Positions 10,323 through 33,046 of a DNA stretch of 55,023 nt are shown here, piece after piece (within the stretch, counting starts at the first letter, position 1; each line of letters opens with the position of its first letter). The notes beneath the pieces are model-generated. The model did not search any database and was not told the DNA's origin. It saw nothing but the letters and a program-made list of their open reading frames with translations. The DNA is taken from contig JBGTIC010000438.1 in assembly GCA_041745895.1 (NCBI GenBank), forward strand, positions 1-55,023, in the 5' to 3' direction. The position numbers and the translations under genes were made by a program. The stretch comes from Gammaproteobacteria bacterium (GTDB lineage: Bacteria; Pseudomonadota; Gammaproteobacteria; Steroidobacterales; PWYM01).

Positions 10323-10329
10323 TCGACCC

Positions 10330-12186: not shown

Positions 12187-12267
12187 GCTGTTGAAGCTCC
12201 ATCCAATACAAGTTCGCGAGTATCACTTAATCCACATCAACGGAGTCCATCTACCAAGTCTGACGCG

Positions 12268-13203
12268 CTAGCGACTCTTTACTCCGACCGGCTTCCTGTT
12301 TTCCATGTAAACCGTGAACGACGAATCGTTCGGAGAACCCCAGCTTTCTGGGGACGGAGCCGATAAAAACTCGGGGTAGTTTCTCGTCATATAGTTCAGA
12401 AGCTGCGGTGGTAGATTGGAAGCACTGCCGGTTTTCTGCATGAAGGTTCTATAGAGCAGATGCCCCTGGCTTTGCCCCATCAACATCCATGGCAACCAGG
12501 GACCCACCCGCACCCAGGTACCGGTGTGGTCAGCCTGCGGTTGATCGGGATCGGCTAACTGTGCGTAGCTAGCTGCTCGGTTAAACATCTCACTGGTTCT
12601 ATTGATGCGACCGGCACTTTCACGCGGCCATTCTTCCGGCGTCATGGGATTGGGAAAAGCGGCGTGCAGCTCAAGCACGCTGAAGACAGTGTCTTGCTGA
12701 ACAAGCCATGGGGGCGTGAACGGAGTCTCCACCATGGTCCCATCAAAGTCCTGCCTCATGATCGGTGCAACTTCTGCATTCACCGTCCGATTCATGATAG
12801 GAAACACATCGACTGTTTCCTGGTTCAAGGGATTGACCCAATGATCCAGATAGGCGCCCGTCGCCAGGTCCTTATACACGGCAAACTCGCGATTGAAGAT
12901 CCGGTATACACCATCACCTACCTGCTGTGTTCGATTGACGCCACAGCCCTCCACACCAATCAGCGGCTCGACCTTTTTCTGATCTCCAATGACAGCGTAG
13001 ATCGTGCCACCAAACCAACCGGCTACTTCAACGGACGGATCGAGACTTCCCATCAACTTGACGAAAGCTTTCAGGTTTTCGGAGGGATTGCTGAAGTCGA
13101 TCAGCCCGTTGGCTCTATTGTGTTCTGCCAGACCTTTGGCGCCGGTTGCCGTAGCAGCAGAGGCAATCATCGAAGCACCGATCAAGTTGTTCAGCAGCAG
13201 CAT
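12268..13203 (-). CDS. D2: DUF1838-like family protein, near-duplicate of D1
   Basis: Collinear with D1 along its whole length (YKDLATGAYLDHWVNPLNQETVDV, WLPWMLMGQSQGHLLY). The DNA is also highly similar to D1. Confidence 0.8.
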   Translation of the reverse strand: MLLLNNLIGASMIASAATATGAKGLAEHNRANGLIDFSNPSENLKAFVKLMGSLDPSVEVAGWFGGTIYAVIGDQKKVEPLIGVEGCGVNRTQQVGDGVYRIFNREFAVYKDLATGAYLDHWVNPLNQETVDVFPIMNRTVNAEVAPIMRQDFDGTMVETPFTPPWLVQQDTVFSVLELHAAFPNPMTPEEWPRESAGRINRTSEMFNRAASYAQLADPDQPQADHTGTWVRVGPWLPWMLMGQSQGHLLYRTFMQKTGSASNLPPQLLNYMTRNYPEFLSAPSPESWGSPNDSSFTVYMENRKPVGVKSR

Positions 13204-13207
13204 TCGA

Positions 13208-14083
13208 CTAAACCTCCGCGTCGGTAAAGCTGTCTACATTCAGATGGTCTGGATACTCTGCCTCGATGCGCTTCCGGTAGGGGTGCGGAAGATCCTCTAC
13301 AGACGCAAGCTTCGCCCCCGAGGCGTGCCAAACCAGGTGACCGGGCCGATCGCCCATATCCAGCCAGTCTGACCAAGGCGCAAAGAAAGACACGGTAAAC
13401 GCAGCCGGCAGACGCCTTCGATTCTTGTCAGCAAAATGATCTGTTCTGACAATCTGCGTCTGTCTCTGCTTGCGCGGTTGCTGGAGTCCGGGAGGATAGA
13501 CGGTCTCGTTGTGCAGCCATACGAAACCTCCGGCCTCCGTCCACCAAAGATCCAGCGGCGCATCTGGAATCTGGTCGGCAACCCACCGCGGCCGAACACC
13601 ACTGGTCTGATAGAGAAACCCGCGGTCGCCGCTTATCTGGCTCAAGGCCGGCACCTCAACAGTCTTTCCTGTGAGCGGGTTTTCCATTTCGTGCAACCAT
13701 TCGCCGGTCGCGATATCCGTGAAAAACGTGACGGTCGCGCCCTTCATGAGGAAGCCACCGGAACGCAGGCGCCTCATCTTGTATATCTCCATACCTTGCA
13801 GCCGCATCAACTCCAGGGGCGCTGCACCGTCGGTAACCGCATAGATAGATCCGTTGTAGAACCACGGCGTATCCTCCGGATCGAGACTGGCCGTAATTCG
13901 AACGAGGTTCTCCAGGTTCTCCTCCGGTGTGACGGGCAAGGCAAGACCGTCGACGCGAGGAGCATTTGCCGTAGACGCCACCGCGCCGAAGACCGGCAGG
14001 AATCCCAAGCCTGCGGCACCCGCACCCCCGAGCGCTGTGCGCCTGCTGATACGCGCGTCGGGCGTTTTACTTGAGTTCGTCAT
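13208..14083 (-). CDS. D3: Tat-exported DUF1838-like family protein
   Basis: Leader ISRRTALGGAGAAGLG. FTDIATGEWLHEMENPLTGKTVEV. WSDWLDMGDRPGHLVWHASG. ATG at 14083, just after the upstream stop at 14097. Confidence 0.8.
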   Translation of the reverse strand: MTNSSKTPDARISRRTALGGAGAAGLGFLPVFGAVASTANAPRVDGLALPVTPEENLENLVRITASLDPEDTPWFYNGSIYAVTDGAAPLELMRLQGMEIYKMRRLRSGGFLMKGATVTFFTDIATGEWLHEMENPLTGKTVEVPALSQISGDRGFLYQTSGVRPRWVADQIPDAPLDLWWTEAGGFVWLHNETVYPPGLQQPRKQRQTQIVRTDHFADKNRRRLPAAFTVSFFAPWSDWLDMGDRPGHLVWHASGAKLASVEDLPHPYRKRIEAEYPDHLNVDSFTDAEV

Positions 14084-14096
14084 AAGAGCGTCTTCC

Positions 14097-15956
14097 TCAC
14101 AATTCCTGGGCCTGGGCATTGTTCATGACTGCCAGCACGACGTTGGCAAGGTGTTCGGCAAGCCGGGGATCATCGTTCATGGGCACCCAGATACTCCATG
14201 TACCGGTATATTGATTCTGGACCGGGGCATCGTTGTCGGGCGGTCCAAGCGCTGGGTCGTATCCCAGGTGGCCGAACGGTGGCACATCGAAGACTATTTC
14301 CGGATCCAGCCTGCTGAGTGCCTGTCCTACCGGCGTTTGGCGAGTCTCGGGGTATCCATTGCCATCAGCGCATCCCCCTAACTTGTAGCAACAGTCGTGG
14401 CTGACCCCTTGCGCACGCGCTGAGGGGCTTTCGTAGCAGACTCGGTCCGAATCAGGCGGCCAGTGATGCGCAAACGGACTATCGTAGCCAGGCCACAGCA
14501 GAACATCGAGATCTGACACGGGTACGAACCCGCGAAAGCCGATTTCCTGCGCTATCTGATTCGGCAGGGTCACCTGCCCCCCTGTGGATGTAACAATCAC
14601 CTGCGGAAACACGACCACGATGTGCTGGACGCCGCTGTCCTTGAGGCGCTCGAGCGCCTCCCAGTAGCGCAAGCCCCACTTGCCCGGGGGCATCTGAGCA
14701 TCTGACCCGTAAAGGTAAGCATGCCCCAGGTCTTCGCCGCGCATCTCCCGGGTACGCTGAAGCTTGCCATCGACCATCTGCCTGATCCCCTCCCAGGCGC
14801 CTACGATATTGTCTGCGGACATGGTCGGATGGAGGGTCAACAGGGCTTCCTGCAAATTTTCGTGAACCGTTATGGTGTCATCGATCTTGGGGTCAAATAC
14901 TTCGTTACCAGAATAGATTCCATGATTGTAAAGAAGCACACCAGTGTCAGCGGGCGATACGCTGGCGGACATGGCGCGCACAATTCCGTCGACCACGATT
15001 GACGCATACGCTGGATCATCGGTCACCGGATTACCGCGGTTCTCAAGCGCTACCTTTGGCGCACTGGGCGGCGCGCCCATCGACGCCGTCCAGCCGGCCG
15101 GCTCCTTGGGGTATGCCTCCATCATGAAGCCGGTGTAGTCGTTGGCCCAAACGATCGGCACCGAGCGGTTCGTGTCGCGCAGCGCGGCATCTCTGGCCCT
15201 GCCCAGCATTTTGTATACATCAAGACTTTTAGAAAAGCGGATACCGCCCACGGCGGTATCGACGACAATTATCCTGTCAACGCCCGCTTGCAGAAGACGA
15301 TCCACTGGTCCGTCCACGTTATAGCGCTCCGGGTCACACAGCGGCCAGCGCCCGTCTGGCTGAGCGCCACCGTCTGTTGAACTGCCGCAGTAACGCATGG
15401 CAATCTCGGACTCGCCATCCTGGTTGTAGATGAAGCGAGGGTAAGGCAGCGACCCCACATCAGATGATCCGGTAATCCAGGCCACCCAATCCACGACAAA
15501 CTGCGTATTCGTAGTGGCTGCCGCCCGATCCAATGCGGCTTGCAGGGAAACCACCTGAGCCTCAGTGACTTGCGTGACCGGCTCAATACTGCCTGCTCGT
15601 CCCAGCTTGAAGATGGACTTGCGGAGCAAGCCAAGAAATTCTGAGGCCTGCCGACCGGCACTGAGCGGCACTACGCGATGCCAGTTCTCCGGCTGCCATA
15701 TAGTATTTTTATATCCCGCGGAGTTCTCATCATAGGATGCCATCTGTATACCGGCATCGAAGAAATTGGAGTAGTTGATCGATCTGTGGCCACCGTGAAC
15801 CAGGTACAGGACTCCAACTTTTTGTGAGTTACTACTTTCGTCCGCAAGAACCTGAGGCGGAGAAAGCAGTTGCGCCGAAAGCAGCAATACCGCAAGCAAA
15901 ACATGAAAGCGGTAGGACACAATGACGACCAGGTGTTTCCTGTATAGAGATGACAT
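14097..15956 (-). CDS. Exported ~619-aa protein, paralog of 10330-12186
   Basis: Same motif series as the 618-aa protein, and the C-terminal ~500 nt are nearly identical at DNA level. ATG at 15956 (MSSLYRKHLVV...); the ORF-track start at 15992 is TTG. Confidence 0.75.
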   Translation of the reverse strand: MSSLYRKHLVVIVSYRFHVLLAVLLLSAQLLSPPQVLADESSNSQKVGVLYLVHGGHRSINYSNFFDAGIQMASYDENSAGYKNTIWQPENWHRVVPLSAGRQASEFLGLLRKSIFKLGRAGSIEPVTQVTEAQVVSLQAALDRAAATTNTQFVVDWVAWITGSSDVGSLPYPRFIYNQDGESEIAMRYCGSSTDGGAQPDGRWPLCDPERYNVDGPVDRLLQAGVDRIIVVDTAVGGIRFSKSLDVYKMLGRARDAALRDTNRSVPIVWANDYTGFMMEAYPKEPAGWTASMGAPPSAPKVALENRGNPVTDDPAYASIVVDGIVRAMSASVSPADTGVLLYNHGIYSGNEVFDPKIDDTITVHENLQEALLTLHPTMSADNIVGAWEGIRQMVDGKLQRTREMRGEDLGHAYLYGSDAQMPPGKWGLRYWEALERLKDSGVQHIVVVFPQVIVTSTGGQVTLPNQIAQEIGFRGFVPVSDLDVLLWPGYDSPFAHHWPPDSDRVCYESPSARAQGVSHDCCYKLGGCADGNGYPETRQTPVGQALSRLDPEIVFDVPPFGHLGYDPALGPPDNDAPVQNQYTGTWSIWVPMNDDPRLAEHLANVVLAVMNNAQAQEL

Positions 15957-16209
15957 ACCCTCAACGCTCCGCCGAGTGGCCGTTTTGCTCAATTGGCCTA
16001 TCTAAATTAACAATTTACAGATCTGACATAGCACCCCCATGTGAGCATAGGATTTCCGCCAAGACTAATGAGTACCAGATGGCGCCCCATCACTTCTATG
16101 CATATTGCACTCAGCGCATGAACGGCCCTTTTTTTGAAGCTCCACGATCGACTAGGCCAGGGTTGCCCAGCCCGAAGAAACTGGCGGCCAATATTATCGG
16201 CAACAGGTG

Positions 16210-17133
16210 TCATTCATCAGCTGCATCGCTGACGCTATGTCCATAGTCTCGCGCGGCTTCGCGTACGAGCTGCATCAGCCGTTCAACCGCCCCGCTACGG
16301 GGTCTGCCGCGCAGAAAGATCAATCCTGCCCGCCGTCTCAAGCGGGGCATTGCCACGTCCAGCACACAAACTTTCCCGCGACGTATTTCGTCGTGCATGA
16401 CACCGCTGGCCATAAAGGCCAGGTGGCTGCCATCGGAGACTAGTAGCCTCACCAACGCCAGCGAATCAGTTCTCAATATGGGCGGCGGTGACAAACCGGA
16501 GGTCTCGAACAGCTGCATGAGCACATCCCGCGGCTCGGTCCTGTCGATGACGACCCAGCGCGATTCCGCCATTTGCTGTAGTTGAATCTGCGTGGTCTGT
16601 GCCAGAGGATGATGGGTGGCTGCAAACACGTTCACGTGCAGGTCCAGAAGCGGCTCGACCACAAAGTCACCGTCGATCGGGGACTGTGTAAAATTGGTCA
16701 GCGCGAAGTCAATCTGACCAGTACGCATCAGCCCCAATAGGTCTTCGAAGTAGCCCTCTGTGACCGTCACGTTGACGTTCGGCATCTGCACACTGGTACT
16801 TTTGGCCGCTTCAAAAGCGATGGAGCCGCCAAACACTGTCGCAATCCCCATCGCCACATGCCCCGCAACGCCGTCACGAAACATGTGAATTTCACGTTGG
16901 GCGCGGTCGCAGTCCTGCAGAATCATGCGCGCGTAGTCGAGAAACAACTCGCCTTCGCGTGTCAGCGATGCACCTCGCGGGCCACGCTCCATCAAACGGG
17001 TCTCAAGCTGACGTTCCAATGCCTTGAGACTTCGCGTGAGTGCCGGTTGGGTCAAGTGCACCCGCCGTGCTGCGCTGGAGAAGTTGCTTTCCTCCGCGAT
17101 CGCGACGAAATGACGCAACTGACGTAATTCCAT
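16210..17133 (-). CDS. LysR-family transcriptional regulator
   Basis: MELRQLRHFVAIAEESNFSSAARRVHLTQPALTRSLKALE winged-HTH followed by a LysR substrate domain. Divergent from the aldehyde dehydrogenase gene. Confidence 0.9.
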   Translation of the reverse strand: MELRQLRHFVAIAEESNFSSAARRVHLTQPALTRSLKALERQLETRLMERGPRGASLTREGELFLDYARMILQDCDRAQREIHMFRDGVAGHVAMGIATVFGGSIAFEAAKSTSVQMPNVNVTVTEGYFEDLLGLMRTGQIDFALTNFTQSPIDGDFVVEPLLDLHVNVFAATHHPLAQTTQIQLQQMAESRWVVIDRTEPRDVLMQLFETSGLSPPPILRTDSLALVRLLVSDGSHLAFMASGVMHDEIRRGKVCVLDVAMPRLRRRAGLIFLRGRPRSGAVERLMQLVREAARDYGHSVSDAADE

Positions 17134-17409
17134 CGAGCAAGTATAACCCGTCCTCATAGCCGCTAACGCACAATTCAGTGTTCTTTTCGCAACTCAACCC
17201 GCACTATCCTGCCATGACCCCGTCGGACACAATTTTCATACCGATCCAACCGCGCCAAGGGGAGGCGAACTCCATACCTGCTTTTCCGGCGCTTGCGAGG
17301 CTCTACTGCCGATTGCCGGGTTTGCTGGGCGCGCAGCGTTCTGGAACGCCCAGGCGCCAAGGCTATGAAGCATCAATCGATGTGAAGTCATTCCACTCGA
17401 GGACTTGTT

Positions 17410-18924
17410 ATGCAGATTGAAGTAGACAAGCTCGCGCCATCCGACGCTCATGCGTGCAAATTTTTGCAGCGTAAGCGCTATCAGCTTTTTATCAATAATG
17501 AATGGCATGATGCCGCGAATGGCGAAACCATTGATACGTTCAACCCAGCGACGGGCGAGCTGATCGGGTGTTTCCCAGCAGGTTCGAATGAAGATATTGA
17601 CCGGGCCGTCAAAGCGGCCCGGTATGCATTGGAGCGAGGCGAGTGGTCGACTCTCACGCCTCGCGACCGCGAAACTTTACTGTGGCGCCTGGCCGAGTTA
17701 GTCGATGCCCATCAACAGGAGTTGGCCGAACTCGAGACAGTAGATCAGGGTAAGCCGCTCTATGTGGCTTTGGCTGAGATCGGCGTCGTGTCGGAAGAGT
17801 TTCGTTTCTTCGCTGGCATGTGTACGAAGATCGAGGGCGAGACGTTCAGTCCTTCTATCGCCTGGCTGCCCCCTGGGCGGGGCACCTTCGCCTTCAGCAT
17901 AAAGGAGCCGATAGGAGTTGTCGGCGCCATCGTCCCATGGAATTCACCGCTGATCATGGCGGCATTCAAGCTGGGACCGGCACTGGCTGCCGGCTGTTCG
18001 GTGGTTCTGAAACCTGCGGAAAATACTTCTCTCACTGCTCTGCGGCTGGCCGAGTTGATTGTCGAGGCAGGGTTTCCACCGGGCGCAGTGAATGTCGTAA
18101 CCGGTCTCGGAAACATTGCTGGCGCCGCGCTCGCCGCTCATCACGACGTTGATAAAGTGGCCTTTACCGGCTCCACCCGGACTGGTCGCCACATTATTGA
18201 CAGTGCCAAGGGCAATCTGAAAAAGGTAACGCTTGAGTTAGGTGGAAAATCGCCTGCGATTTTTCTCGAGGATTGTGATCTTAAGTTGGCTGTGCTGGGT
18301 GCTGTCAATGCGATCACATGGAACAATGGTCAGATCTGTGTCGCCGGATCCCGGCTATATGCACACCACTCTATTTTTGATGAACTGGTGGCTGGTGTTG
18401 CCGAGGCAATGGATGGCATGGTTCTGGGCCATGGTTTGGATCCAGCAACACAGATCGGCCCGATGGTCACTCCGCTGCAGGCGCAAAGCATTCAGCGGTA
18501 TATCGACGAGGGGCTTGAGCAAGGCGCCGAAGCGCTGGTCGGCGGGCACGCCGTAAACTCGGTCAGTGGTTGCTTTATCAAGCCGACAGTCTTGGTCGAA
18601 ACCCAGCCCTCCATGCGTTGCGTTCAAGAGGAGATATTCGGCCCAGTTCTGGTGTGTATGCCATTTTCGGATATCGACGACGTCATCCGGCAGGCCAATG
18701 ATTCCATTTATGGCTTGAGTGCGAGTCTATGGACCGAGAGCCATTCGTCAGCCATCAGTCTGTCGCGTCGATTGAAGGCGGGGACCGTATGGATAAACAG
18801 TCATCTGCTGTTCGATGCAAGCCTGCCTATAGGCGGCTACAAGCAATCAGGATTCGGCCGTGATCGTGGTGCTCAAGCGGTCGAGAATTATTTGGAAACA
18901 AAGACAGTTATTTCGTTGGTGTAG
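17410..18924 (+). CDS. NAD(P)+-dependent aldehyde dehydrogenase
   Basis: ALDH motifs [17 protein letters not shown] and GQICVAGSR (catalytic Cys), plus EEIFGPV. 504 aa. Confidence 0.9.
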
Positions 18925-18955
18925 TGAACGAAAGTCCTTCAATGGGGGGCATCAG

Positions 18956-21900
18956 ATGACCGAAAATGCGACCACTGACGTCGATGCTGTTGTAGTCGGC
19001 GCGGGGTTCGCTGGACTGTACCAGCTGTACCGGCTCCGGAGAGCCGGCTTTCGTACGATCGTGCTCGAACATGCAGATGATGTGGGCGGCACCTGGTACT
19101 GGAACCGCTACCCCGGTGCGCGCTGCGACATCCTGAGTATCGACTACTCCTACAGCTGGGACCCCGACCTGGAGCAGGAATGGGCGTGGTCGGAGCGCTA
19201 CGCTACGCAGCCGGAGATCCTGCGTTACATCCAGTTCGTCGCGAACAAGCACGACCTGCGGCGCGATATCGTATTCAACACGCGCGTTGAGTCCGCCAAA
19301 TGGAATGACACCACCAGGCGTTGGTCGATCCGCACCAACACCGATGCCCGCTTCACTGCCCAGTTCTACGTGATGGCCACCGGATGCCTTTCGATTCCAA
19401 AGGTTCCCGACATCGAGGGGCTTAGCCGTTTCAAGGGAGAGGTGTATTTCACGAACAAGTGGCCACACGATGGGGTGGATTTCACGGGACAACGGGTCGC
19501 CGTCATTGGCACCGGATCGACGGCGATGCAGGCCATCCCCATGATCGCCGAACAGGCCGCGCACTTGACCGTGTTCCAGCGTACACCCAACTTCTCGCTG
19601 CCGGCGCACAACGGTCCAATCTCCGAAGAGCGTCTGGCGAAGTATCGCAAAGATCGACGCGAATACCGGCAAGCGGCGCGCTGGTCATTAGCCGGCGTGC
19701 CCCGAGTACGCCCTACCGAAGGCGCGCTCATGGTGTCCGAGGAGGAGCGCAACGCCCGTTACGAAGCCATGTGGGAGGCAGGCGAACTGCTGGGCGCCAG
19801 CGATACGTTCAATGATATCCGTACGAACCCTACGAGCAATGAAACCCTGCGTGATTTCATCCATAACAAAATCCGCGCAGTCGTCAAGGACGAAAAGGTT
19901 GCTGCGCTGTTATGCCCGAAAGACTACTACGTGGGCAGCAAACGTGTCTGCCTGGATACGAATTACCACGCGACCTTCAACCTGCCCCATGTTCGCCTGA
20001 TCGATCTGAAGTCACAACCGATCAAGACGATCACTGAGTCAGGCATCGACATCTCGACCGACACCGACGGGCAACACCTCGAGTTTGACGCCATCGTGTT
20101 CGCCACGGGGTTCGACGCGATGACAGGTGCCATCCTCGCTGTCGATTTGATCGGCCGCGATGGGATGACGCTGCGCGAAAAGTGGGCCACTGGCGCCGTC
20201 ACGTACCTCGGCATGATGACCACAGGATTCCCTAATCTTTTCATGATCACCGGCCCAGGAAGCCCATCGGTGTTCTCGAACATGGTGGTATCTATCGAGC
20301 AGCATGTCGAATGGGTCACGAGCGCGCTGGAGCACGTCAGCAAGAACGGATTCGACACGATTGAGCCCACCGAGCTGGCCGAGACGCATTGGGTCCGGCA
20401 CAGCAACGAGGTTGCCTCCCTGACACTGTTGCCAACCGGAAACTCCTGGTACATCGGCGCCAACATTCCGGGCAAGCCGAAGGTATTTCTGCCCTATCTG
20501 GGTGGGGTTGATCAGTATCGGGCTGCGTGCGACGAGGTTGTCGAGCGAGGCTACCTCGGGTTCGTTTTCGCCGGACCCGATGGCATTGTCGCCAACGACG
20601 GGGTCATCCGGGAGCTCAAGCCCGATGTCGCGAAGATGCTGCAGGCAACGGCCGAACTTGGCTTGCCACCGATCGAATCGATGTCTGTGGCCGAGGCTCG
20701 AGCATTCATGGAGGCCGCGGTTGCCAAGCGCCCACGCGGGCCCGAGGTGGGCCAGGTTGTCGACGACACGCTTCCGGGCGCCGATGGAAGTATATGCAGC
20801 TACCGGCTCTACCGGCCCGCTTCGCCCGGGCCGCACCCGATCGTCGTGTACTTCCACGCGGGTGGGTGGGTTCTGGGCAGCCACACGTCCGATGATGCTG
20901 TCTGTCGCGACCTGTGCGTGCGATCGGATGCCATCATCGTGTCGGTCGACTACCGGCACGCCCCAGACGCCCGGTTTCCGGCAGCGGCTGACGACGGACT
21001 CGCTGCAGTTGGGTGGATCGCCGAGAACGCCGGGAGACTCGGCGGTATGCCAGGTCAGCTGGCCGTGGCCGGCTTTAGCGCAGGCGGCACTCTGGCAGCG
21101 GTGACATGTCAGCAGGCGAGGCTCGCAGGCGGGCCATCGATCGCCGGACAGCTGCTGGTCAATCCTGTGACCGATTGCGACTTCACCACGTCATCGTACG
21201 TGGAGAACGCCGAAGGATACATCCTGACCAGACGACTGATGGAATGGTTCTGGGACCACTACTGCGATCCCGCCGAGCGTAACGACCCGAAAGCCTCACC
21301 ATTGCGGGCTGATGACCTGTCCGGTCTTCCACCGGCAATGGTCGTAACCTGTCAGTTCGACCCGCTACGCGACGAAGGCGAGGCTTACGCAAAGGCGCTG
21401 GCTGAGGCCGGTGTGCCTGTTCAACACCTGCGATGCGAGGGCCATACCCACACCTCGCTCGGCGCCGTCGGCGTGGTCGCCACAGGAGCCGACGCCCGCG
21501 AAGAGATGGCCAAGGCCTTGCGCTCGTTCTTCAACCCTCATCGGAACAGACCAATGAGTGAATTGCGTGAGGACGAACCGCCGATTGCGGTGATCGGGGC
21601 TGGTCTGGGTGGCTTGAGCGTGGCCATCGGATTACTCCAGAAGGGCTTTCGTGTGCGCATCTACGAGCAGGCTGACGCATTTGGCGAAGTGGGTGCCGGG
21701 ATCTCGATATCGCCGAATGCGAGCAAGATTTTCGCCGCCTGGGGACTGGATGAACGGCTGGCTGAGATTTCGTGTACACCGCTGGTCGGGACGGTACTCA
21801 ATGGGGTGACCGGCGAGGCGCTGCAAAGTCAGCCACTTGGCGATGCGTTGGAGCAGTTGTTCGGCTCGCCTTACTACCAGCTGCTGCGACCGCAGCTGCA

Positions 21901-22738
21901 TGCCATGCTGGTGGATGAGGTGCGCAGGCTCGATGCTGATGCGTTCCGACTCGGGCATCGCCTGGTGGATATCTCGGGTCCTGATGATGCGCCGGTGCTG
22001 GAATTTGCCGACGGTGCGACCGCTGAGGCGTCGCTGGTCATCGCCGCAGACGGTGCACGCTCCGTTGTGCGTTCGCGGCGGTTCGCGGATGAGCCGGCGC
22101 GCTTTACGCGTCATATTGCGTATCGCGGCGTGCTGCCTAGCGAGAACCTGCCTGACCGCTACCGTGAACCAAAAGCGATGGTCTGGCTGGGTGACCGCTG
22201 CCAGCTGGTCCATTATCCGGTGGCTGACTACGAGGCGGTGAATGTAGTGGCCTTCGTCAGTGATGTCGACTGGGATGTCGAGGGGTGGCACGAGCGCGCC
22301 GAGCTCAGTGAGCTGCAGGCTGCGTTCGCTGGGTTCTGTGATGAAGCCAAAGCCGTGCTCGATAACCTGGCGGGTCATGAACTGTTCAAGTGGGCGCTGT
22401 ACGATCGCGAGCCTGTCGATGAGTGGGCGCGTGGCCGGCTGGTGCTGATGGGGGATGCCGCGCATCCAATGCTGCCCTATCTGGGCCAGGGTGCGGCGAT
22501 GGCGATCGAGGACGCCTGGGTGCTGTCAAGCGTGCTGGCCAGTCACGAACGCCTCGATGAAGCGCTGATTGACTATCAGCAACGGCGCGTCGAGCGGGCA
22601 AAGTGGGTACTGCTGCAGTCACGCGAGCAGGGCAAGCGTTATCATGAACCCGGACAGGATTCACAACGGTTCGAGGGCGATGCGGTGATGCATACGCAGA
22701 AGCTGTTTTCGCCCGGGCCGACATCGCTCCTGACGTAG
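18956..22738 (+). CDS. Three-domain fusion: type I Baeyer-Villiger monooxygenase + HSL-family esterase + class A FAD-dependent hydroxylase
   Basis: One uninterrupted frame. BVMO, about nt 18956-20585: [52 protein letters not shown]. Esterase, about nt 20612-21538: YFHAGGW, GFSAGG, DPLRDEG, GHTH. Hydroxylase, nt 21554-22738: [44 protein letters not shown] 18956 is preceded by a G-rich RBS. Confidence 0.8.
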
Positions 22739-22778
22739 TTCTCTCACAGGCAACTATCTGCACTTTCTGGAGGCATCA

Positions 22779-24011
22779 ATGGATGGCTTGACGCTCAACA
22801 CTTTTCAGCAGATCGATCACCCAGCGCTGCCCAAGACGAACCACGATGAACGTTCGCGGCAGGAGTTTTCCAAGAGTCTGAAGACCTGCATTCAGAAAAA
22901 GATTCTCCCGGGGCTGCAGACGGTTTATACGACCCGTGCCGCGAAGGCCTTCGAGAAGACCGAAGGGCGCGCCCCGGAGAATCGTCGCGATATCCGCAAG
23001 GCCATGGAGCGCGATCTCTACTTCCAGCACTACCTGTGCATCAATCGAGTCGCCCAGGAGCTGATATGGGAGTCGGTGATGACCTCCGTCGAACGTCAGC
23101 TGCCCGAGCTGATCGACACGGCGCGTGCGCTGTCGGCGAAGTCCAGGGCCACGCTTGAGATCGACCCTGCGTTCAAGCCGCCGCGCTACGCCACGGCCTT
23201 GGACATCCACTGCATGCCCGGCGGTTATGCCGACGAGTTCACCGAGGATGATGTGGCCGTGGCGGCGCTTTACGATCGCGGCGTATTTCTGTATGCCATG
23301 GGCTTCATCGGCCCGTACAACGACGATATGGGCCGCTCGGTGTGCAACTACCTGCAGCGCAACCTGCCCGATTTCAAGCCCAAGCGGATCCTCGACATGG
23401 GTTGCTCGGTCGGCCATTCCACCGTGCCCTACAAGGAGCGGTTTGCCGACGCGGAAGTCTATGGCCTGGACATTGGGGCCCCGCTGGTGCGATACGCTCA
23501 TGCGCGGGCAAAAGGACTGGGCCAGGAGGTGAACTTTGTACTCGGCAATGCCGAGGACACGACATTTAAGGACGAAAGCTTCGATCTGATCGTCAGCCAC
23601 ATCCTGCTGCACGAGACCTCCGGCAAGGCCATGCCGCGCATCTTCAAGGAGTGTTTTCGGCTGCTCAAGCCGGGTGGCTACATGATCCATGCCGACCTGC
23701 CGCCGTTTTCGAAGATGGACAACTTCGCGCAGTTCATCCTGGATCTGGAAACCTACTACAACAACGAACCGTTCTGGGGCGCGATGCGCGAGGCCGACCA
23801 GGCCGAGTTGGCGCGGGCGGCTGGCTTTCGTGGCGAAGACGTTTTCTCCGACACCGCACCGATGGCCATCATGGAAATGGCAGCTGCAGCGCAGGCCGGC
23901 AATCCTGAGGCGGCAATAGACACCCAGTCCGAAGAATTCAAGAGCGGTGAGTTTGCACCGACCAGCGGCTGGGAAGTGCTGATCGGACGCAAGCCGGAGG
24001 TGAAGCAATGA
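22779..24011 (+). CDS. Class I SAM-dependent methyltransferase with a ~190-aa N-terminal extension
   Basis: Motif I ILDMGCSVGHST, post-I YGLDIG, later LKPGGYMIHAD. RBS tGGAGGc lies 6 nt before the ATG. The equal-length antisense ORF is rejected. Confidence 0.8.
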   Translation: MDGLTLNTFQQIDHPALPKTNHDERSRQEFSKSLKTCIQKKILPGLQTVYTTRAAKAFEKTEGRAPENRRDIRKAMERDLYFQHYLCINRVAQELIWESVMTSVERQLPELIDTARALSAKSRATLEIDPAFKPPRYATALDIHCMPGGYADEFTEDDVAVAALYDRGVFLYAMGFIGPYNDDMGRSVCNYLQRNLPDFKPKRILDMGCSVGHSTVPYKERFADAEVYGLDIGAPLVRYAHARAKGLGQEVNFVLGNAEDTTFKDESFDLIVSHILLHETSGKAMPRIFKECFRLLKPGGYMIHADLPPFSKMDNFAQFILDLETYYNNEPFWGAMREADQAELARAAGFRGEDVFSDTAPMAIMEMAAAAQAGNPEAAIDTQSEEFKSGEFAPTSGWEVLIGRKPEVKQ

Positions 24012-24361
24012 GTGCGCAACTGAAAGTTCGCCGCGATGCGCGCGGCAAGCGTCCGCAGTTTTACGATGATCCCGCCAACGACACGCTGATGTCGATGGTC
24101 ATGGTGCTGGCCAGCGAGCTGTGCGTGACGCGCGATAGGCTCGACACCATCGAGCGTATCGCCGATGAGAAGAACCTGATCATTTCGCGTGAGATCGACA
24201 TGTTCAAGCTCGATCAGGAAGCGCTGGCCGAGCGCGAGCAGCGGCGTCAGGACTTCATGGACCGGATGTTCTATCTGCTTCGCAAGGACATCTCGGAGCT
24301 CCAGGAGCAGGACACCGGTGAGCGCTACACGCAGACCCTCGACGACATCGCGAAGAACTGA
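24008..24361 (+). CDS. Hypothetical 117-aa charged protein, translationally coupled to the methyltransferase
   Basis: ATGA start/stop overlap at 24008-24011. Coiled-coil-like Glu/Arg/Asp-rich sequence. No motif recognised. Confidence 0.5.
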   Translation: MSAQLKVRRDARGKRPQFYDDPANDTLMSMVMVLASELCVTRDRLDTIERIADEKNLIISREIDMFKLDQEALAEREQRRQDFMDRMFYLLRKDISELQEQDTGERYTQTLDDIAKN

Positions 24362-24434
24362 TTCACCAGTACCACTCAGACGTGCTGACCGAACGGCAGC
24401 TCAGTACCGAATAGGGAAACGTAGCTGACACGTC

Positions 24435-24471
24435 AAAAAAAGCAAGGTGGCTGACGCATGCGTCAACCACC
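24435..24471 (-). terminator. Rho-independent terminator of the TonB-dependent receptor gene
   Basis: Hairpin GGTGGCTGACGC-at-GCGTCAACCACC (one mismatch) at 24446-24471. On the minus strand it is followed by a T7 run (A7 at 24435-24441 on the plus strand). Lies about 25 nt past the stop at 24496. Confidence 0.7.
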
Positions 24472-24495
24472 CTGCCGTGACGCTCTTCCTGGTTT

Positions 24496-26865
24496 CTAGA
24501 ACCTGTATGTCGCGGTGACGCCAACCTGACGCTTGTTGGCGAGCACAGCCTCGGAGGCCGAGAGCTGGAAGAAGAACGGGTCGGTCGCACTGTCACTGTT
24601 ATAGCGCGAGGACTCCAGCGTGTCATCATCAAACAGGTTGTTCACGAACACTGTCACATCCCAGTTGTCGGCACGAATACCGCCGCGCAGGTTGGTGCGG
24701 ATCTGGCTGGGCACATACGCAAGATTGGCAATACTGTCCCACATGCGGCCACGATAGGTCACATCGGTACGCACAAACCAGCTGCGATCGCCCATCATCG
24801 GCGCCTCATAATCTGCATACGCCGCGGCACTGAACTCGGGCACCTGACCAAAATCGAATCCCTTGGCGTCCGTGATGCCGAAGAAGCGCAGCGGCAGCGT
24901 CTCGTTGAGCGCCTTGGTGATGTTGGTTTTGGCGTAGCCTGCGCTGCCGCCCACGGTGAGACGATCGGTCAGGCTGTACGCACCATCAAGCTCGATACCG
25001 CGAGTGTTGCTGTCGCCAGCTGCGAAGGGTACAGCGTTGAATGTTTCGCCAACCGGCGCTTGGCCAGGTTGGATGATACCGTCCCCGTTCAGATCCACCT
25101 GAACGGTGCGTGTACCCTGCCGGCCCACCCACTCGAGGTAATAGATGGCGGCATTGGCAAACCAGCGGCCATCCGCCGAGCGATGCTTGATGCCGATCTC
25201 GTAATTCTCCACCTCGGCTTCGGGCGCGGTGGGCACCACGCCGGCTGCCAGGGCAATCACCTGCTGTTCGGGAGTAAGCAGGAAGTACGTGGCGTAGCCT
25301 TGCGTGGGCTGGTTGCCCTGGGCGTAGTTGCCGTAAAGGTTGGTCTGATCCGAAAGCTCGTAGCGAAGGAGAAAGCGCGGAAGCGTCGCTGTAGTTTCGA
25401 CATCGAACACCGTCGGCAGACCAATACCACTGGTGATGGTGTCCTTCTGACGACGCGCTTCAACACTCAGGTTCAGCCGATCGGTGAAATCATAGCCGAC
25501 CTGCGCAAACACCGAGTCGGTCTTCGATGCGTTGCGCGCCGGAATCAGCGACGCAGGGTTGGCCGGCCCACCCTGTCCGGGGCCGAACAGCGTACCGAGG
25601 ATGAAGGCGCCAAGTGAGTCGTAGGTCTGTTCCAGACGAGCCACCCCGACCATATAGGTCAATGCTGAATCCTGCGGAGACGAAAGGCGAAGCTCATAGC
25701 TGTCTTGTTCCTGCGCGATTCTGATGAAGGCCCAGTAGCGGTCTTCGGGGGCGCGCTCGAAGTCAGCGAGTCTGCGAAGCTCGTAATCCTGCGTACTGAC
25801 CACTGCAGTGAGGGTATGACCGCTGGCGAACCCATAATCGGCAGACGCCGAGAGCAGCTGGTGATCATACTCCGCACGCGAGTCGGCGAAGGGAACACCA
25901 GGACTTACGTTGTCCGGGAGATCAACATTGATGCCAACCTGACCCGAGGGGGCCTGGAGTGGCCCGCAATATGACCGGCGCGCCTGCTCAAGGGTAAACC
26001 CGGCGGGCAGACCCCCAAGCGGGCGAGGCAGGAAACCCGGGAACGGGCCGCAGTTGTGCTCGGTAAACCGCGCGATCAGCGCCGTGGCCTCCGGGCCGTC
26101 CTTGTCGCTGCGATCGCTGAAGCGCACCCGCATGGAGAAGTTGTCGGTCGGCGTGAAGCTCAGGGTGCCCGCGTAGTAGAGCCCCTCGCTTTCGCCCAGA
26201 CGCCCGCCGAAGCTGTTCTTGTAGAAACCATCAAAGGTGTTGGCCTGCACCACCAGTCGGCCGGCCAGCACGTCCGCCCAGATTGGCCCTTCCACCGACA
26301 ACGAACCGCGGTAGTCGCCATAGGCCGCAGCCGTGCCGCTGACCCGGGCTTTAAACTCGTTACCCGGTGTCGTTGTGATCATACTGATCGCGCCGCCAAA
26401 GGTCGCTCGGCCAAACAGCGCCGACTGTGGCCCCTTGACGATCTCAACGCGCTCCAGATCCTCCACCCCGTAAGTCGTCGGTGAGCCCACAAGCGGCACG
26501 CCATCAAGAAACACTGTGACCAGATCCCGACGGTTGTCACCCTGAGGGCCGACCTGGTTCATACCGCGAACCGAGAAGCTGGAGGAACCCCGGTAAGTGT
26601 TGCTGTTGAGGTTTATGCCGGGCGTGAATTTTGTCAGATCTGCCATGTTCTGAACGCCGCGAACCTCAACCTGGTCTCCGCTGAACGCCAGGATGCTCAA
26701 AGGCGCGTCCTGAACCGTCTCCTCGCGCTTGCGCGCCGTGACAACGATCTCGTCGAGCATTCGCGCGCCGGTGCGCTCCTGCGCCTGGGCAAGCCCATGG
26801 CCTGCAACTCCCGTGGCGCAGATCAGACTGACCAGGCGCATACTGTTGGATTTTGATAACGACAT
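24496..26865 (-). CDS. TonB-dependent outer-membrane receptor
   Basis: Signal peptide. Plug DEIVVTARKREETVQDAPLSILAF and VEIVKGPQSALFGR. Long beta-barrel. C-terminal ...TATYRF. Confidence 0.9.
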   Translation of the reverse strand: MSLSKSNSMRLVSLICATGVAGHGLAQAQERTGARMLDEIVVTARKREETVQDAPLSILAFSGDQVEVRGVQNMADLTKFTPGINLNSNTYRGSSSFSVRGMNQVGPQGDNRRDLVTVFLDGVPLVGSPTTYGVEDLERVEIVKGPQSALFGRATFGGAISMITTTPGNEFKARVSGTAAAYGDYRGSLSVEGPIWADVLAGRLVVQANTFDGFYKNSFGGRLGESEGLYYAGTLSFTPTDNFSMRVRFSDRSDKDGPEATALIARFTEHNCGPFPGFLPRPLGGLPAGFTLEQARRSYCGPLQAPSGQVGINVDLPDNVSPGVPFADSRAEYDHQLLSASADYGFASGHTLTAVVSTQDYELRRLADFERAPEDRYWAFIRIAQEQDSYELRLSSPQDSALTYMVGVARLEQTYDSLGAFILGTLFGPGQGGPANPASLIPARNASKTDSVFAQVGYDFTDRLNLSVEARRQKDTITSGIGLPTVFDVETTATLPRFLLRYELSDQTNLYGNYAQGNQPTQGYATYFLLTPEQQVIALAAGVVPTAPEAEVENYEIGIKHRSADGRWFANAAIYYLEWVGRQGTRTVQVDLNGDGIIQPGQAPVGETFNAVPFAAGDSNTRGIELDGAYSLTDRLTVGGSAGYAKTNITKALNETLPLRFFGITDAKGFDFGQVPEFSAAAYADYEAPMMGDRSWFVRTDVTYRGRMWDSIANLAYVPSQIRTNLRGGIRADNWDVTVFVNNLFDDDTLESSRYNSDSATDPFFFQLSASEAVLANKRQVGVTATYRF

Positions 26866-28170: not shown

Positions 28171-29109
28171 TCACGCGGGCTTTCGCTCCCGCATGTAGCG
28201 AATCATGCTGGGCTCGCTGGGTCGCACTTCTGCAGGCGGGAACAGGAATTCCGGCAAGCGCTCGCGCACCACGGCGAGTATGTGTGGCGGCAGCTCGGCC
28301 GTCGTCTGCGCCGTTGCGGTCATGGCACTGTAGAGACAGTGGCCAGGGTGCTCTCCCATGAGCATCCAAGGCTGCCAAGGTCTCACGTGCACCCAGTGGC
28401 CTGAGTAATCGACACTGTCTCTGCGTGGGTCGGCAAGCTCGCTCCAGCTTGCGTGATAGCTGATCATGTCCGAGACCTGGATCTCCGCGCCGCTGCTTTC
28501 ACGCTTCCAGATCGCAGGATCCAGTGGGTTTCGCGCCCAGAAGTGTGCGCGCTGCTCAAGCAGCACGCGATCACCGGCGCGCTGCCAGGGCAACACGAAG
28601 GGCACTTCTGCCGGCGCCTTTGCTTCACCGTCGACGCGATCATAGAAGCGCTCCTGCTTCACGACCGGCAGTATCCATCGATTGACCGCCGGGTTGGCGA
28701 TGGGAAACGGCTCTACGATTTCATCGATGTAGGGATTGTGCCAGCGTTCAAGTACCTCGCCGGTATCAAGGTCGGTAAAGAATCCGCACTCCTTCTGCAG
28801 CAACTGATAACCACCCTGATCGGGCACGGCCACCAGCCGCTGCGAACTCATCCCGAAAATTCCCACCAGCTCGCGCACCGCAGCACCCGGCACGACGCCC
28901 ATCAGCACCCCTGTATACCAGCCGTGCTTGTACCCATCCGGCGCCAGCGTGGCCGTGAGCTTGGCCAGTGCGGTGACGTTGCCGGCCGCCGTTGTTAGAT
29001 CAAGCGCGTCGGCGGTCGGTGCTGTGCGCGCGCGCGCCGCGGAAGCCACCAGCGGGGCTTCGAGCAAGGCGGCCAGCCCGAAGCCGTGCAGAACGGTGCG
29101 TCGCTTCAT
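28171..29109 (-). CDS. D4: Tat-exported DUF1838-like family protein
   Basis: MKRRTVLHGFGLAALL. FTDLDTGEVLERWHNPYIDEIVEP. WQPWMLMGEHPGHCLY. ATG 29109 lies just after the upstream stop at 29117. Confidence 0.8.
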   Translation of the reverse strand: MKRRTVLHGFGLAALLEAPLVASAARARTAPTADALDLTTAAGNVTALAKLTATLAPDGYKHGWYTGVLMGVVPGAAVRELVGIFGMSSQRLVAVPDQGGYQLLQKECGFFTDLDTGEVLERWHNPYIDEIVEPFPIANPAVNRWILPVVKQERFYDRVDGEAKAPAEVPFVLPWQRAGDRVLLEQRAHFWARNPLDPAIWKRESSGAEIQVSDMISYHASWSELADPRRDSVDYSGHWVHVRPWQPWMLMGEHPGHCLYSAMTATAQTTAELPPHILAVVRERLPEFLFPPAEVRPSEPSMIRYMRERKPA

Positions 29110-29116
29110 GTTCGCG

Positions 29117-30019
29117 TCACTCCCAGCGGGTCCAAGTGCGAAGAAAGTCAGGGTGGTCGGCGGCAATGCGTTCGCGCATGGCTTCGGGCACGGCGAGGCG
29201 ATCTTCCGTGCGGCACTTGGCACCGATCAGGCGCATGTTCTGCACGCCGGGTATCGAACTCATCTCCAGCCAGCCGACGAAACTGTTGAGTGTGGTGTAG
29301 CTGAAGGTGCAGTCGATCCAGTCGGACTCAGGCCGCTGAAGATCTGCCGCGGCACAGATGAAGGTGGCCAGCGAAGTCGAAATGCGTTCCGGGCGGGCCT
29401 CGGCATCCTCAGTGCCTGGCATGCCAGGCAGCTTCACATACAGATCTTCGGTCAGTGCCACAATGCCGCCGACTTCCGCGAGCCGCGTCACCTCGCCACG
29501 AAACTCTATGCCGGCAGGCAGCTGCGCGATCGGGTGCACACCGGTCCCGGAGAATCGCAGCTGCTGCGGTGAACGATAGTGCCGCGGGCGCACCTGCGCG
29601 CCGGTAAAGGGATTGATCAGCGCCTCGAGCACCTCGCCGGTCGAGAGATCACAGAAGTAGCCGACTTCTTCGAGTTGCAGATCCCATGCGCCATCATCAC
29701 GCGCCGTGATCCGGGTGAAACTCAGGCCTTCGATTCTGGTGACCTCACGCGCCAGCTGCCTCTCGGGCTTGACCACCAGCACACCGGAGTACACCCACAT
29801 GACGGGTGCGCCGTCGGGTGAGCTGCGCATACGCATGCTGTCACGCAACAGCGGCGTGGCATCGAGGTCACGTCGGGGCGCGGTGGTGCCAGCGGACATC
29901 TGCGCGGCAGCGGCCGCCATGCCGACGCCGGGGGCAAGCATCAACAAACCCAGATGTCCAAGCATCTCCCGTCGCGATGTATGCGCCCTCGCAGGTGCGC
30001 AGTCCGATTGCTTATTCAC
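29117..30019 (-). CDS. D5: divergent DUF1838-like family protein (C-terminal PGH block degenerate)
   Basis: SRREMLGHLGLLMLAPG leader. FCDLSTGEVLEALINPFTGAQVRP. The C-block reads WLEMSSIPGVQNM. Proposed GTG start at 30019 overlaps the upstream stop (GTGAATAA); start uncertain. Confidence 0.65.
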   Translation of the reverse strand: MNKQSDCAPARAHTSRREMLGHLGLLMLAPGVGMAAAAAQMSAGTTAPRRDLDATPLLRDSMRMRSSPDGAPVMWVYSGVLVVKPERQLAREVTRIEGLSFTRITARDDGAWDLQLEEVGYFCDLSTGEVLEALINPFTGAQVRPRHYRSPQQLRFSGTGVHPIAQLPAGIEFRGEVTRLAEVGGIVALTEDLYVKLPGMPGTEDAEARPERISTSLATFICAAADLQRPESDWIDCTFSYTTLNSFVGWLEMSSIPGVQNMRLIGAKCRTEDRLAVPEAMRERIAADHPDFLRTWTRWE

Positions 30020-30941
30020 GGCTGATGATCTCCACGAGGTCGGCATTGAATCGCTTCGCAGCCTCAACGAAAGGGGAATGCCCGACCCCGGAGTAGACAC
30101 GAACTTCAATGTTGGACTTGTGCCCGAGCGCCTCGCTTATCACTGCAGCATTCAGACTGAAGTCGGCCTCGCCGATCACCAGCAACATCGGCAGGGTCAG
30201 GTCACTGATCAGATCGGAGTTATCGAGGCTTTTGCCGACGAATGCCCGGCGAACGTAAGGCGGCAACATGACATGAGAAAACTCTCCGCGAACCCGGATC
30301 TCGTCGGGCAGGGGCTGGGCACTCATGAGACTCATGAACTCGCGGGCACTTTCGATCGCCGCCTGCAGGTCGTTGGAGAAATCAGGCGTCGCGCCGACAG
30401 GTCGCCTGAGCAGGCCGCCATGACTGCCGGTGAACAGCAGACCCGAGAGGGGTTGCTGGCCGTACCTTCGCACGTAATCCAGTGCGACAAAGCCGCCAAA
30501 TGACCAGGCGACCAGCCACGGCTGATGGATGTCGAGGGTCTGCATGACCATCGCAAGGTCATCGGCCCACGGCTCGTGGCCCTGGTACGCTTCAGGAGTC
30601 CAAGGCTTTCCCGAAGCGCCGTGGCCGCGCAGGTCCAGCGCGATCAGGCGATACCGCTGTGCAAGATCAGCATCATCGAGCTGTGCACGCCAGCTCAGGT
30701 AGCTCTGTGAGAAGCCGTGCAGGAAGACCACCGGCACACCGGCCCGGTTGCCCGTCTCCACCACGTTCAGCGGCACGCCGTCGTGAGAGACGATCTCGTG
30801 AAAGGTGTAGTTTTGTGCAGACGCAGCGTCACGGGGGTCGGCGATCGCACCGGTGCCAGCCAGACACACCAACAGAGCGGCAAGCAAGGGGCTTCGCATC
30901 AGCACCCGACTGCTTTTTGATTGGATCGACCAACCACCCAT
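30012..30941 (-). CDS. Exported alpha/beta hydrolase (paralog of 6933-7856)
   Basis: Signal MRSPLLAALLVCLAGTGAIA. VVFLHGFSQSYLSW. Nucleophile elbow AWSFGG. GVGHSPF. ATGA overlap with the D6 stop at 30941; alternative ATG at 30899. Confidence 0.75.
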   Translation of the reverse strand: MGGWSIQSKSSRVLMRSPLLAALLVCLAGTGAIADPRDAASAQNYTFHEIVSHDGVPLNVVETGNRAGVPVVFLHGFSQSYLSWRAQLDDADLAQRYRLIALDLRGHGASGKPWTPEAYQGHEPWADDLAMVMQTLDIHQPWLVAWSFGGFVALDYVRRYGQQPLSGLLFTGSHGGLLRRPVGATPDFSNDLQAAIESAREFMSLMSAQPLPDEIRVRGEFSHVMLPPYVRRAFVGKSLDNSDLISDLTLPMLLVIGEADFSLNAAVISEALGHKSNIEVRVYSGVGHSPFVEAAKRFNADLVEIISRE

Positions 30942-31807: not shown

Positions 31808-31852
31808 ATGGAGGACTTGTATCCGTCGGCCTTTAGAAAGGACATACTCGCT

Positions 31853-31870
31853 GTGATCATTTTTGATCAC
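31853..31870. promoter_or_regulatory. Perfect inverted repeat GTGATCA-tttt-TGATCAC in the D6/D7 divergent intergenic region
   Basis: Read directly, 46 nt upstream of the D6 start. Candidate operator only. Confidence 0.3.
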
Positions 31871-33016: not shown

Positions 33017-33046
33017 GCCAACACCATAAAACCAAGGGGAAGGGGC

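Follow-up and report, generated by a model that had tools for sequence, protein, structure and literature searches.

In ketone catabolism, a Baeyer-Villiger monooxygenase (BVMO) and an esterase can work as a pair, as do the products of hapE and hapD in Pseudomonas fluorescens ACB and of mekA and mekB in P. veronii, where the ketone is converted into an ester and the ester is then hydrolysed, each step on a separate polypeptide. Natural fusions of the two enzymes are known from genome analysis (review by Aalbers & Fraaije 2018, citing van Beilen et al. 2003; PMC6563810). The window considered here, a stretch of 55,023 nucleotides from a Gammaproteobacteria bacterium (contig JBGTIC010000438.1, assembly GCA_041745895.1), contains an open reading frame (ORF) at 18956-22738 on the + strand in which the same two-step logic is carried by one polypeptide, and in which a third enzyme, a group A hydroxylase dependent on flavin adenine dinucleotide (FAD), follows in the same frame. 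Two-thirds of this ORF are a common, known type of bifunctional enzyme; what looks new is the in-frame addition of the hydroxylase in one lineage. Literature searches found no published BVMO-esterase-hydroxylase or esterase-hydroxylase fusion, only a generic remark on BVMO-esterase fusions.

The reading that we regard as probable, though well short of secure, is that of a real and lineage-specific fusion produced by genome rearrangement, incidental in the sense of neutral or mildly tolerated, and not a conserved channelling enzyme. The starting point would have been an ordinary bifunctional BVMO-esterase gene situated behind an aldehyde dehydrogenase (ALDH) gene in a LysR-controlled operon. 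A rearrangement would then have joined this gene to a group A hydroxylase gene that normally stands alone. The join would have cost the esterase gene its stop codon and the ~3 codons before it, and the hydroxylase gene its 5'-untranslated region (5'-UTR) except for ~9-12 nt, and it would by chance have fallen in frame.

Three enzyme domains in one reading frame

The program-made ORF list gives a single open frame from a GTG at 18860 to 22738. Counted from the ATG at 18956, the frame encodes 1260 amino acids (aa) and runs without interruption to 22738, the stop codon included. This ATG is the likely start, because relatives begin at the equivalent Met (MAQNASTDVD... in the nearest, P0001), and the product predicted from it should be a ~138-kDa polypeptide with three intact catalytic domains. 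The original prediction, made from the DNA letters, had placed three complete enzyme domains within this frame. Pfam, NCBIfam and PDB sequence searches agree with it and recover all three: a class B flavoprotein/BVMO-type N-terminal domain at aa ~4-545, an Abhydrolase_3/LipP1-type HSL esterase at aa 556-855 (E 8e-71) and FAD_binding_3 at aa 874-1235 (E 4.5e-27). The motifs quoted for the domains were likewise all found in place when the protein was aligned with its relatives, and the wording of the short BVMO fingerprint alone had to be corrected.

The first domain (18956-20590, aa 1-545) is placed by PDB matches and motifs among the type I BVMOs of the PAMO/STMO clade. It matches PAMO (1w4x) and STMO (4ap3) end to end (E ~1e-177), with aa 7-538 of the ORF aligned to PAMO 15-541 at E 1.8e-177 in the PDB sequence search. 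Both Rossmann motifs are present and align with PAMO (GAGFAG at aa 15, GTGSTA at aa 185). The long BVMO motif [A/G]GxWxxxx[F/Y]P[G/M]xxxD, found at aa 44 and shared with both enzymes as GGxWxxxxYPGxxxD, has its Asp aligned with PAMO D66, and the catalytic Arg is kept, R330 aligning with PAMO R337. PAMO and STMO differ from the ORF in being single-domain enzymes, and PAMO carries a fingerprint His, H173. The assignment to type I BVMOs is confirmed, but the short fingerprint FxGxxxHxxxW[P/D], which had been cited in its favour, is non-canonical: in the fingerprint region (19430-19465, aa 159-170) Phe165 replaces PAMO His173 (PAMO: FAGNLYHTGNWP), and the remaining active-site signature is canonical. 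In all close BVMO-esterase fusion relatives that were aligned, this His is replaced by Phe or Tyr; the Phe is a family-wide variant and not a lesion of this gene, and Phe or Tyr at the position could be a hallmark of the fused BVMO-esterase family. By analogy, the domain would use NADPH and O2 to convert a ketone of the phenylacetone or steroid type into an ester.

An inter-domain linker and a family IV (HSL) esterase domain occupy 20591-21532 (aa 546-859), ending in the conserved ...ALRSFF. The Abhydrolase_3 family (PF07859) scores 238.6 bits against a cutoff of 25, and the NCBIfam LipP1 model is passed marginally (351.1 bits, cutoff 350). The PDB sequence search returns Est8 (4ypv, E 2e-75) and other family IV esterases. 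HAGGW, GFSAGG, DPLRDEG and GHTH all fall in conserved columns of the alignment with relatives; the oxyanion motif reads HAGGW in P0001 also, and HGGGW in most relatives. The domain is predicted to split the BVMO-made ester into an acid and either an alcohol or a phenol. Among the top-ranking relatives of this domain, tandem Abhydrolase_3-Abhydrolase_3 proteins of 595-677 aa, or ‘double esterases’ (P0241, P0242, P0244, P0267, P0275, P0260, P0288), turn up fairly often.

Together, residues 1-859 are a normal member of a known and widespread two-domain family, which has hundreds of homologs of ~860 aa in several phyla. With the full ORF as query against an index of 5.8 billion proteins, the 120 best matches are all 827-891 aa long, cover 65-69% of the query and combine a BVMO-type domain with Abhydrolase_3; FAD_binding_3 (PF01494) occurs in none of these 120. 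Among 185,579 species genomes (one per species), every match at the 80 best loci stops near residue 860-920, and where a match seemed longer the ORF still ends at 852-890 aa. These 80 loci belong to Acidimicrobiia (mainly Ilumatobacteraceae, up to 74% identity), Gammaproteobacteria, Mycobacteriales, Bradyrhizobium, Pseudaquabacterium and Bacillaceae. JGI annotates the ~860-aa family as ‘CzcO flavoprotein/acetyl esterase/lipase’, and the literature search found no biochemically characterised member of it. Residues 1-859 align colinearly with P0001, P0002, P0003, P0007, P0017 and P0099 at 66-83% identity (83% for P0001, 66-75% for many other members), and domain order, inter-domain linker and motifs are shared. 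The family members, however, end 3-10 residues past ...ALR.F[FL], or after a tail of ~30 residues in the case of locus L023, whereas the window ORF continues for a further 394 aa. The covalent assembly had been called unusual; this does not apply to its BVMO-esterase part, which is a common and conserved ~860-aa fusion, and holds for the esterase-hydroxylase fusion, which is unique in the searches.

In the reference genomes, the best matches of the BVMO-esterase part are Actinomycetota (Actinomycetes and Ilumatobacteraceae metagenome-assembled genomes (MAGs), 70-74%), ahead of gammaproteobacterial MAGs (59-62%). The window itself, in contrast, contains TonB-dependent receptors, and the relatives of its hydroxylase are gammaproteobacterial. 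There are hints here that the two-domain gene may have moved between phyla. On three metagenome contigs (L133, L146, L151), the two activities are encoded by separate genes with the esterase first and the BVMO beginning a few to a few dozen bases past the esterase stop codon; the pairing of BVMO and esterase has thus arisen by more than one path.

The third domain (21554-22738, aa 867-1260) is a group A FAD-dependent hydroxylase, colinear from Met1 to the stop codon with stand-alone orthologs of 394 aa. FAD_binding_3 scores 95.6 bits against a cutoff of 22. The PDB matches, at E 1e-54 to 1e-60, are tropone 2-monooxygenase (8rqh), the 6-hydroxynicotinate 3-monooxygenase NicC (5eow), decarboxylating 4-hydroxybenzoate and vanillate 1-hydroxylases (8gsm, 8x38) and the 3-hydroxybenzoate 6-hydroxylase 3HB6H (4bjy), which share the fold family and the GxGxxG/DG/GD motifs but are distant. 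The cutoffs of the specific equivalog models for 3-hydroxybenzoate 6-monooxygenase and salicylate hydroxylase are not reached (NF006021, 280 against 459 bits; TIGR03219, 151 against 446 bits), and with such scores and such distant solved relatives a substrate cannot be transferred to the hydroxylase. From its family membership, the domain would, at the expense of NAD(P)H and O2, add a hydroxyl group to a phenol or a hydroxy-aromatic acid, in the course of which the substrate may also be decarboxylated. Its stand-alone relatives P0121 (90%), P0122 (89%) and P0123-P0127 (68-73%) are each 394 aa long, cover 100% of the query and have the same Met start; the alignment with these seven is free of gaps, and the fingerprints GAGLGG, ADGARS and GDAAHP (GxGxxG, DG and GD) lie in invariant columns. 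None of the 120 best matches of the third domain in the protein index contains the esterase domain (PF07859).

In the relatives, the stand-alone hydroxylase is encoded in a different, conserved operon that runs Abhydrolase_1, FAD_binding_4, ALDH and then hydroxylase (L004-L008 and L170, the last being MAG GCA_020832005.1, JAFIFN010000010.1). The copies of uncultured Gammaproteobacteria (L004, L007, L008, L170) share with the window the ATG along with ~9 nt of preceding sequence (ACAGACCA plus one base), and a methyltransferase gene and a gene for a 117-aa protein lie in the neighbourhood of the stand-alone loci as they do here. In those loci, however, the hydroxylase gene stands on its own after FAD_binding_4 and ALDH genes and is served by an AGGA ribosome-binding site, whereas the window copy follows the esterase without an intervening stop codon and so is covalently attached to it. 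At 10001-11185 of L170 the stand-alone hydroxylase is called as two pieces (204 and 186 aa), a sign that this assembly has a frameshift or stop codon there; the split copy is either a pseudogene or an assembly error.

The esterase-hydroxylase junction

Several large collections were searched for a second example of the esterase-hydroxylase junction. An exhaustive HMMER search with a 715-aa esterase-plus-hydroxylase query found the esterase-to-hydroxylase domain order in none of 1.84 billion cluster representatives, and a 160-aa junction-spanning query returned no protein that covers both sides in the 5.8-billion-protein index. A wobble-tolerant DNA pattern of the junction had no match in JGI metagenome contigs; a junction-spanning protein query recovered 80 metagenome loci, with a third-domain homolog in none (0/80). 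Exact look-up gave no identical record for the tri-domain protein, the methyltransferase or the 117-aa protein. The search for natural homologs with the same three-domain order, which had been proposed as a check, was thus run on the protein index, the cluster representatives, the species genomes and the JGI metagenome contigs and returned none. A group A monooxygenase is found near a BVMO-esterase gene at one of the 80 genome loci (28% identity, opposite strand) and at none of the 80 metagenome loci. The esterase-hydroxylase fusion appears to be a lineage-specific singleton, with no recurrence in diverged genomes.

Candidate fusions were rejected on inspection. The matches at L118, L133, L146, L151, L089 and L138 in the metagenome scan continue past a stop codon, either into the next gene or into non-coding sequence, and those at L042, L022, L023 and L063 in the genome scan likewise cross a stop codon. 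The seven double esterases named above had come up as esterase-hydroxylase candidates and are tandem esterase-esterase proteins instead. When two-domain homologs were aligned with MAFFT, their BVMO Rossmann domain was laid onto the hydroxylase half at 18% identity. The reverse order, FAD_binding_3 followed by Abhydrolase_3, is found in metagenome-only proteins of ~700-720 aa (P0282, P0302, P0315, P0334, P0341, P0352, P0354). As in the window, a group A monooxygenase and an HSL-type esterase are covalently linked; unlike the window ORF, these proteins have no BVMO, are 32-34% identical and form a small family of several clusters.

The junction itself can be read at base level. A linker of seven codons, N-P-H-R-N-R-P (21533-21553, +), separates the two domains, as defined by blastn and base-level comparison. 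The window reads TTC TTC AAC CCT CAT CGG / AAC AGA CCA ATG AGT across the join; the esterase end in L001, a contig of the nearest two-domain relative, reads TTT TTT GAC ACC CCT TGT CGT CAG GAC AAT TAG, and the hydroxylase leader in L004 and L170 reads ...CTACAGGACAGACCA ATG AGT. Codons 1-4 of the linker (N-P-H-R) are a remnant of the esterase tail, and codons 5-7 (N-R-P, AAC AGA CCA) are translated 5'-UTR of the hydroxylase gene. An ATG had been reported to be kept at the junction, and it is located at 21554-21556. Blastn homology to L001 and L002 stops at 21531 and extends weakly to 21545; homology to L004, L007 and L170 opens at 21546, 8 nt before the ATG (~9 by base-level comparison), and for L004 and L170 amounts to 88% over 21546-22738 only, ending at the stop codon. 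The breakpoint is placed between 21545 and 21546, where it coincides with a break in synteny.

A short GGA at 21543-21545 (+), 8 nt before the internal ATG, is a remnant of the AGGA Shine-Dalgarno sequence of the hydroxylase gene by comparison with L004, L007 and L170 (...ACAGGACAGACCAATG), and initiation at 21554 with this weak signal may yield some separate 394-aa hydroxylase. The sequence CAGGACA (~7 nt) occurs at the join in both types of ‘parent’ sequence, which is compatible with a microhomology-mediated join. In the scan of 16900-24600 for promoters and terminators, no signal exceeded that of shuffled sequence, and no terminator separates the domains.

On a larger scale, the junction marks one end of a segment that the nearest relative does not have. 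P0001 (83% aa identity; contigs L001 and L002) has the same ALDH upstream and ends ...ALRSFFDTPCRQDN, and in L001 a convergent DUF1838 gene lies 90 nt past the two-domain gene. Blastn aligns L001 with window 17401-21531 and then, in the same orientation, with 43948-44040 (43948-44095 for L002), so that ~22.4 kb of the window is missing from L001, and this segment begins at the esterase-hydroxylase junction. Its far end is marked by a DUF1838 gene (43946-44854, -; Pfam) orthologous to the one in L001 and L002; L001 4467-4559 and L002 2731-2878 match window 43948-44095 at 82-84%. Behind the hydroxylase, after a 54-nt spacer, comes a second block of L170-like sequence, containing the methyltransferase and the 117-aa ORF and inverted relative to L170 (L170 1888-3457 against window 24362-22793, 87.7% identity); L007 gives the same picture. 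A mobile element was considered for the 22.4-kb segment and rejected: there is no tRNA gene in the window and there are no integrase or transposase domains in the ORFs scanned.

The original prediction had singled out the esterase-hydroxylase junction as the suspicious one, and it is indeed the derived junction, with no fused relative and with the breakpoint falling there. The explanation offered, a stop codon recently lost between neighbouring genes, found no support. Adjacent esterase and hydroxylase genes occur in no sampled relative of either side; simple stop-codon loss is rejected as the primary model on account of this non-adjacency, and the junction coincides with a rearrangement breakpoint.

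Artefact, incidental fusion or selected enzyme

A number of observations weigh against the reading of a real, incidental fusion. No independent contig spans the junction, and the fused state rests on one assembly. In both other frames, a TGA overlaps the hydroxylase start, so that one missed or extra base within 21533-21553 would yield two ordinary, translationally coupled genes. The 22.4-kb difference may be an insertion in the window or a deletion in L001. In relative-rate counts of lineage-specific changes, the hydroxylase has 17 window-specific changes against 5 specific to P0121 (p=0.02) and 18 against 7 specific to P0122 (p=0.04), an excess that could reflect relaxed constraint or adaptation, and the BVMO-esterase part has 56 in the window against 36 in P0001 (p=0.05). 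All substrate assignments, finally, are drawn from sequence.

The first two of these observations bear on a sequencing or assembly artefact, in which the true genome would have a BVMO-esterase gene ending at an overlapping TGA and a separate 394-aa hydroxylase gene, the apparent fusion being due to an indel error of a single base or to the chimeric assembly of two strains that occur together. The other frames end at 21555-21557 or at 21559-21561 (caATGAgtGA), which would give classic gene overlaps (ATGA or ATGAGTGA); the fusion is a singleton without an independent contig across it, and the window looks metagenome-derived, its relatives and the identical Logan contig L169 all being metagenome contigs. 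Yet an error would have to be confined to 21 nt, because homology pins down the frame as far as ...SFF and again from Met1 onwards, and this linker contains no homopolymer longer than CCC. L169 (run SRR28170462) is 100% identical to window 15189-19108 (3.9 kb), although it ends before the junction, and in Pfam scans of ~30 window genes no gene seemed to be broken up by a frameshift, which makes an indel within the 21-nt target improbable. A chimeric graph join needs a shared k-mer and the ‘parents’ share only ~7 nt; the contig, moreover, rejoins L001 synteny ~22 kb on, at 43948. The in-frame outcome of a random join, at ~1 in 3, would be far likelier than a base-calling indel at this place. 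An artefact is accordingly judged unlikely, and a read-level check is warranted before biochemical claims are made for the tri-domain ORF.

If the sequence is right, the next question is whether the tethered hydroxylase has suffered. The ratio of non-synonymous to synonymous substitution rates (dN/dS, by NG86) is 0.13 for the hydroxylase against L004 (dS 0.42), 0.085 for two stand-alone hydroxylases against each other, and 0.15 for the BVMO-esterase part against L001 (dS 0.62). Every domain is under purifying selection and there is no sign of decay. The window lineage has evolved somewhat faster throughout, and more so in the fused domain. A compromised hydroxylase within a real fusion, misfolded or non-oligomerising, with the gene heading for loss or working only by initiation at 21554, would account for the lineage-specific excess (17:5 and 18:7), for the changes G66D, N153D, A174S, L229V and A378V at five positions invariant in the seven stand-alone relatives, and for the weakening of the Shine-Dalgarno sequence from AGGA to GGA. 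It is the least probable of the readings considered, and a very unlikely one: the 394 codons are without stop or frameshift, the fingerprint motifs are all kept, and dN/dS is close to that of the other domains. Extensions at the N-terminus are also tolerated, because the crystallised forms of the solved relatives had 20-30 additional residues there, as judged from alignment offsets. The fusion is either a young one, or the hydroxylase remains functional despite its tether.

A selected trifunctional enzyme is the third alternative, in which the path from ketone to ester, to phenol or alcohol and on to a hydroxylated product would be adaptive through proximity or stoichiometry. The three domains are intact and under purifying selection, and the BVMO-esterase precedent indicates that fusion of consecutive steps is favoured in this family. 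Covalent links between a group A monooxygenase and Abhydrolase_3 exist in the reverse order (P0282, P0302, P0315 and others), and by established enzymology a BVMO acting on aryl ketones together with an esterase would give a phenol, a typical group A substrate. On the other hand, no second example occurs in any collection searched, and the linker consists of leftover tail and UTR. The claim of a selected, channelled three-step assembly also found no comparative support, because group A monooxygenases almost never lie near BVMO-esterase genes (1/80 genome and 0/80 metagenome loci) and the tri-domain protein is a singleton. The conserved partner of the hydroxylase is an ALDH, which suggests as substrate an aromatic acid two steps removed from what the esterase releases. 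We consider a selected enzyme of this kind rather unlikely, with a chance only slightly better than that of an artefact.

Under the preferred reading of an incidental fusion, the substrate of the hydroxylase is likelier to be an aromatic acid made by an ALDH than the esterase product, because an ALDH gene precedes the hydroxylase gene in all the relatives and the closest enzymes of known structure take hydroxy-aromatic acids or similar rings as substrates. What the fusion brings together is most likely a set of enzymes from a single regulon or pathway, and not three strictly consecutive, channelled steps. The three activities may still share one route, because an ALDH paralog heads the same operon in the window, and a possible sequence would be aryl-alkyl ketone to ester, alcohol, aldehyde, acid and hydroxylated ring.

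If the sequence is right, the locus would be a snapshot of the birth of a multi-enzyme protein, in which an intact gene, still with its start codon and a short piece of its leader, has been dropped in frame behind an already bifunctional gene via ~7 nt of microhomology. Biocatalysis would gain a natural counterpart to its engineered fusions, a BVMO-esterase-hydroxylase construct with a natural 7-residue linker, for comparison. There is an outside chance, about as small as that of an artefact, that the sequence is correct and the fusion adaptive as well, which would make this polypeptide, with its two classes of flavin monooxygenase (class B BVMO and group A hydroxylase) on either side of an esterase, the first natural three-enzyme version of the artificial biocatalysis cascades, taking a ketone through oxygen insertion, ester cleavage and ring hydroxylation. 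No new conserved enzyme family or pathway is revealed, and the ~860-aa BVMO-esterase family is the larger practical resource.

Neighbouring genes and the wider window

A LysR-type transcriptional regulator and an aldehyde dehydrogenase had been noted upstream, and both are present. The regulator gene (16210-17157, -) is divergent from the operon, and the identical gene in L169 has HTH_1 and LysR_substrate domains. The ALDH gene (17410-18924, +; 504 aa), identified by homology, is the first gene of the operon and is conserved beside the two-domain gene in the nearest relative: its product is 84% identical at the aa level to that of the Aldedh gene before the two-domain gene in L001, but it shares only 44% identity with its counterpart upstream of the L007 stand-alone hydroxylase.

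Downstream, a methyltransferase dependent on S-adenosylmethionine (410 aa; Pfam Methyltransf_25/11) and an overlapping 117-aa ORF (together 22779-24361, +) are probably co-transcribed. In relatives, this pair belongs to the hydroxylase locus, where it is inverted and ~6.5 kb away. The methyltransferase gene (22779-24011, +) has an antisense mirror ORF at 22776-24008 (-), likewise of 410 aa; the Pfam match is on the + strand only, and high G+C content is the most likely reason for the antisense ORF.

DUF1838 (PF08894) is locally expanded, with at least 13 paralogs at 9399-14119 and 28174-44854. The genes lie at 9399-10322, 12271-13203, 13211-14119, 28174-29223, 29120-30109, 30944-32173, 31863-32861, 36712-37698, 37655-38608, 38651-39475, 40979-41860 and 43070-43921, in addition to the one ending at 44854. 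Interleaved with them are two TonB-dependent receptors, two flavin amine oxidases, alpha/beta hydrolases, a beta-lactamase-fold protein, a CN-hydrolase and a LytTR regulator. Two further ORFs, at 10333-12186 (-, 618 aa) and 14100-15992 (-, 631 aa), have no Pfam match and appear to be paralogous, since 15189-15825 (~640 nt) matches 11422-12060 at 83%. Topoisomerase IV genes (parC-like and parE-like) are found at the left end of the window (1113-5265, -), and because of them the locus is taken to be chromosomal and not a small mobile element.

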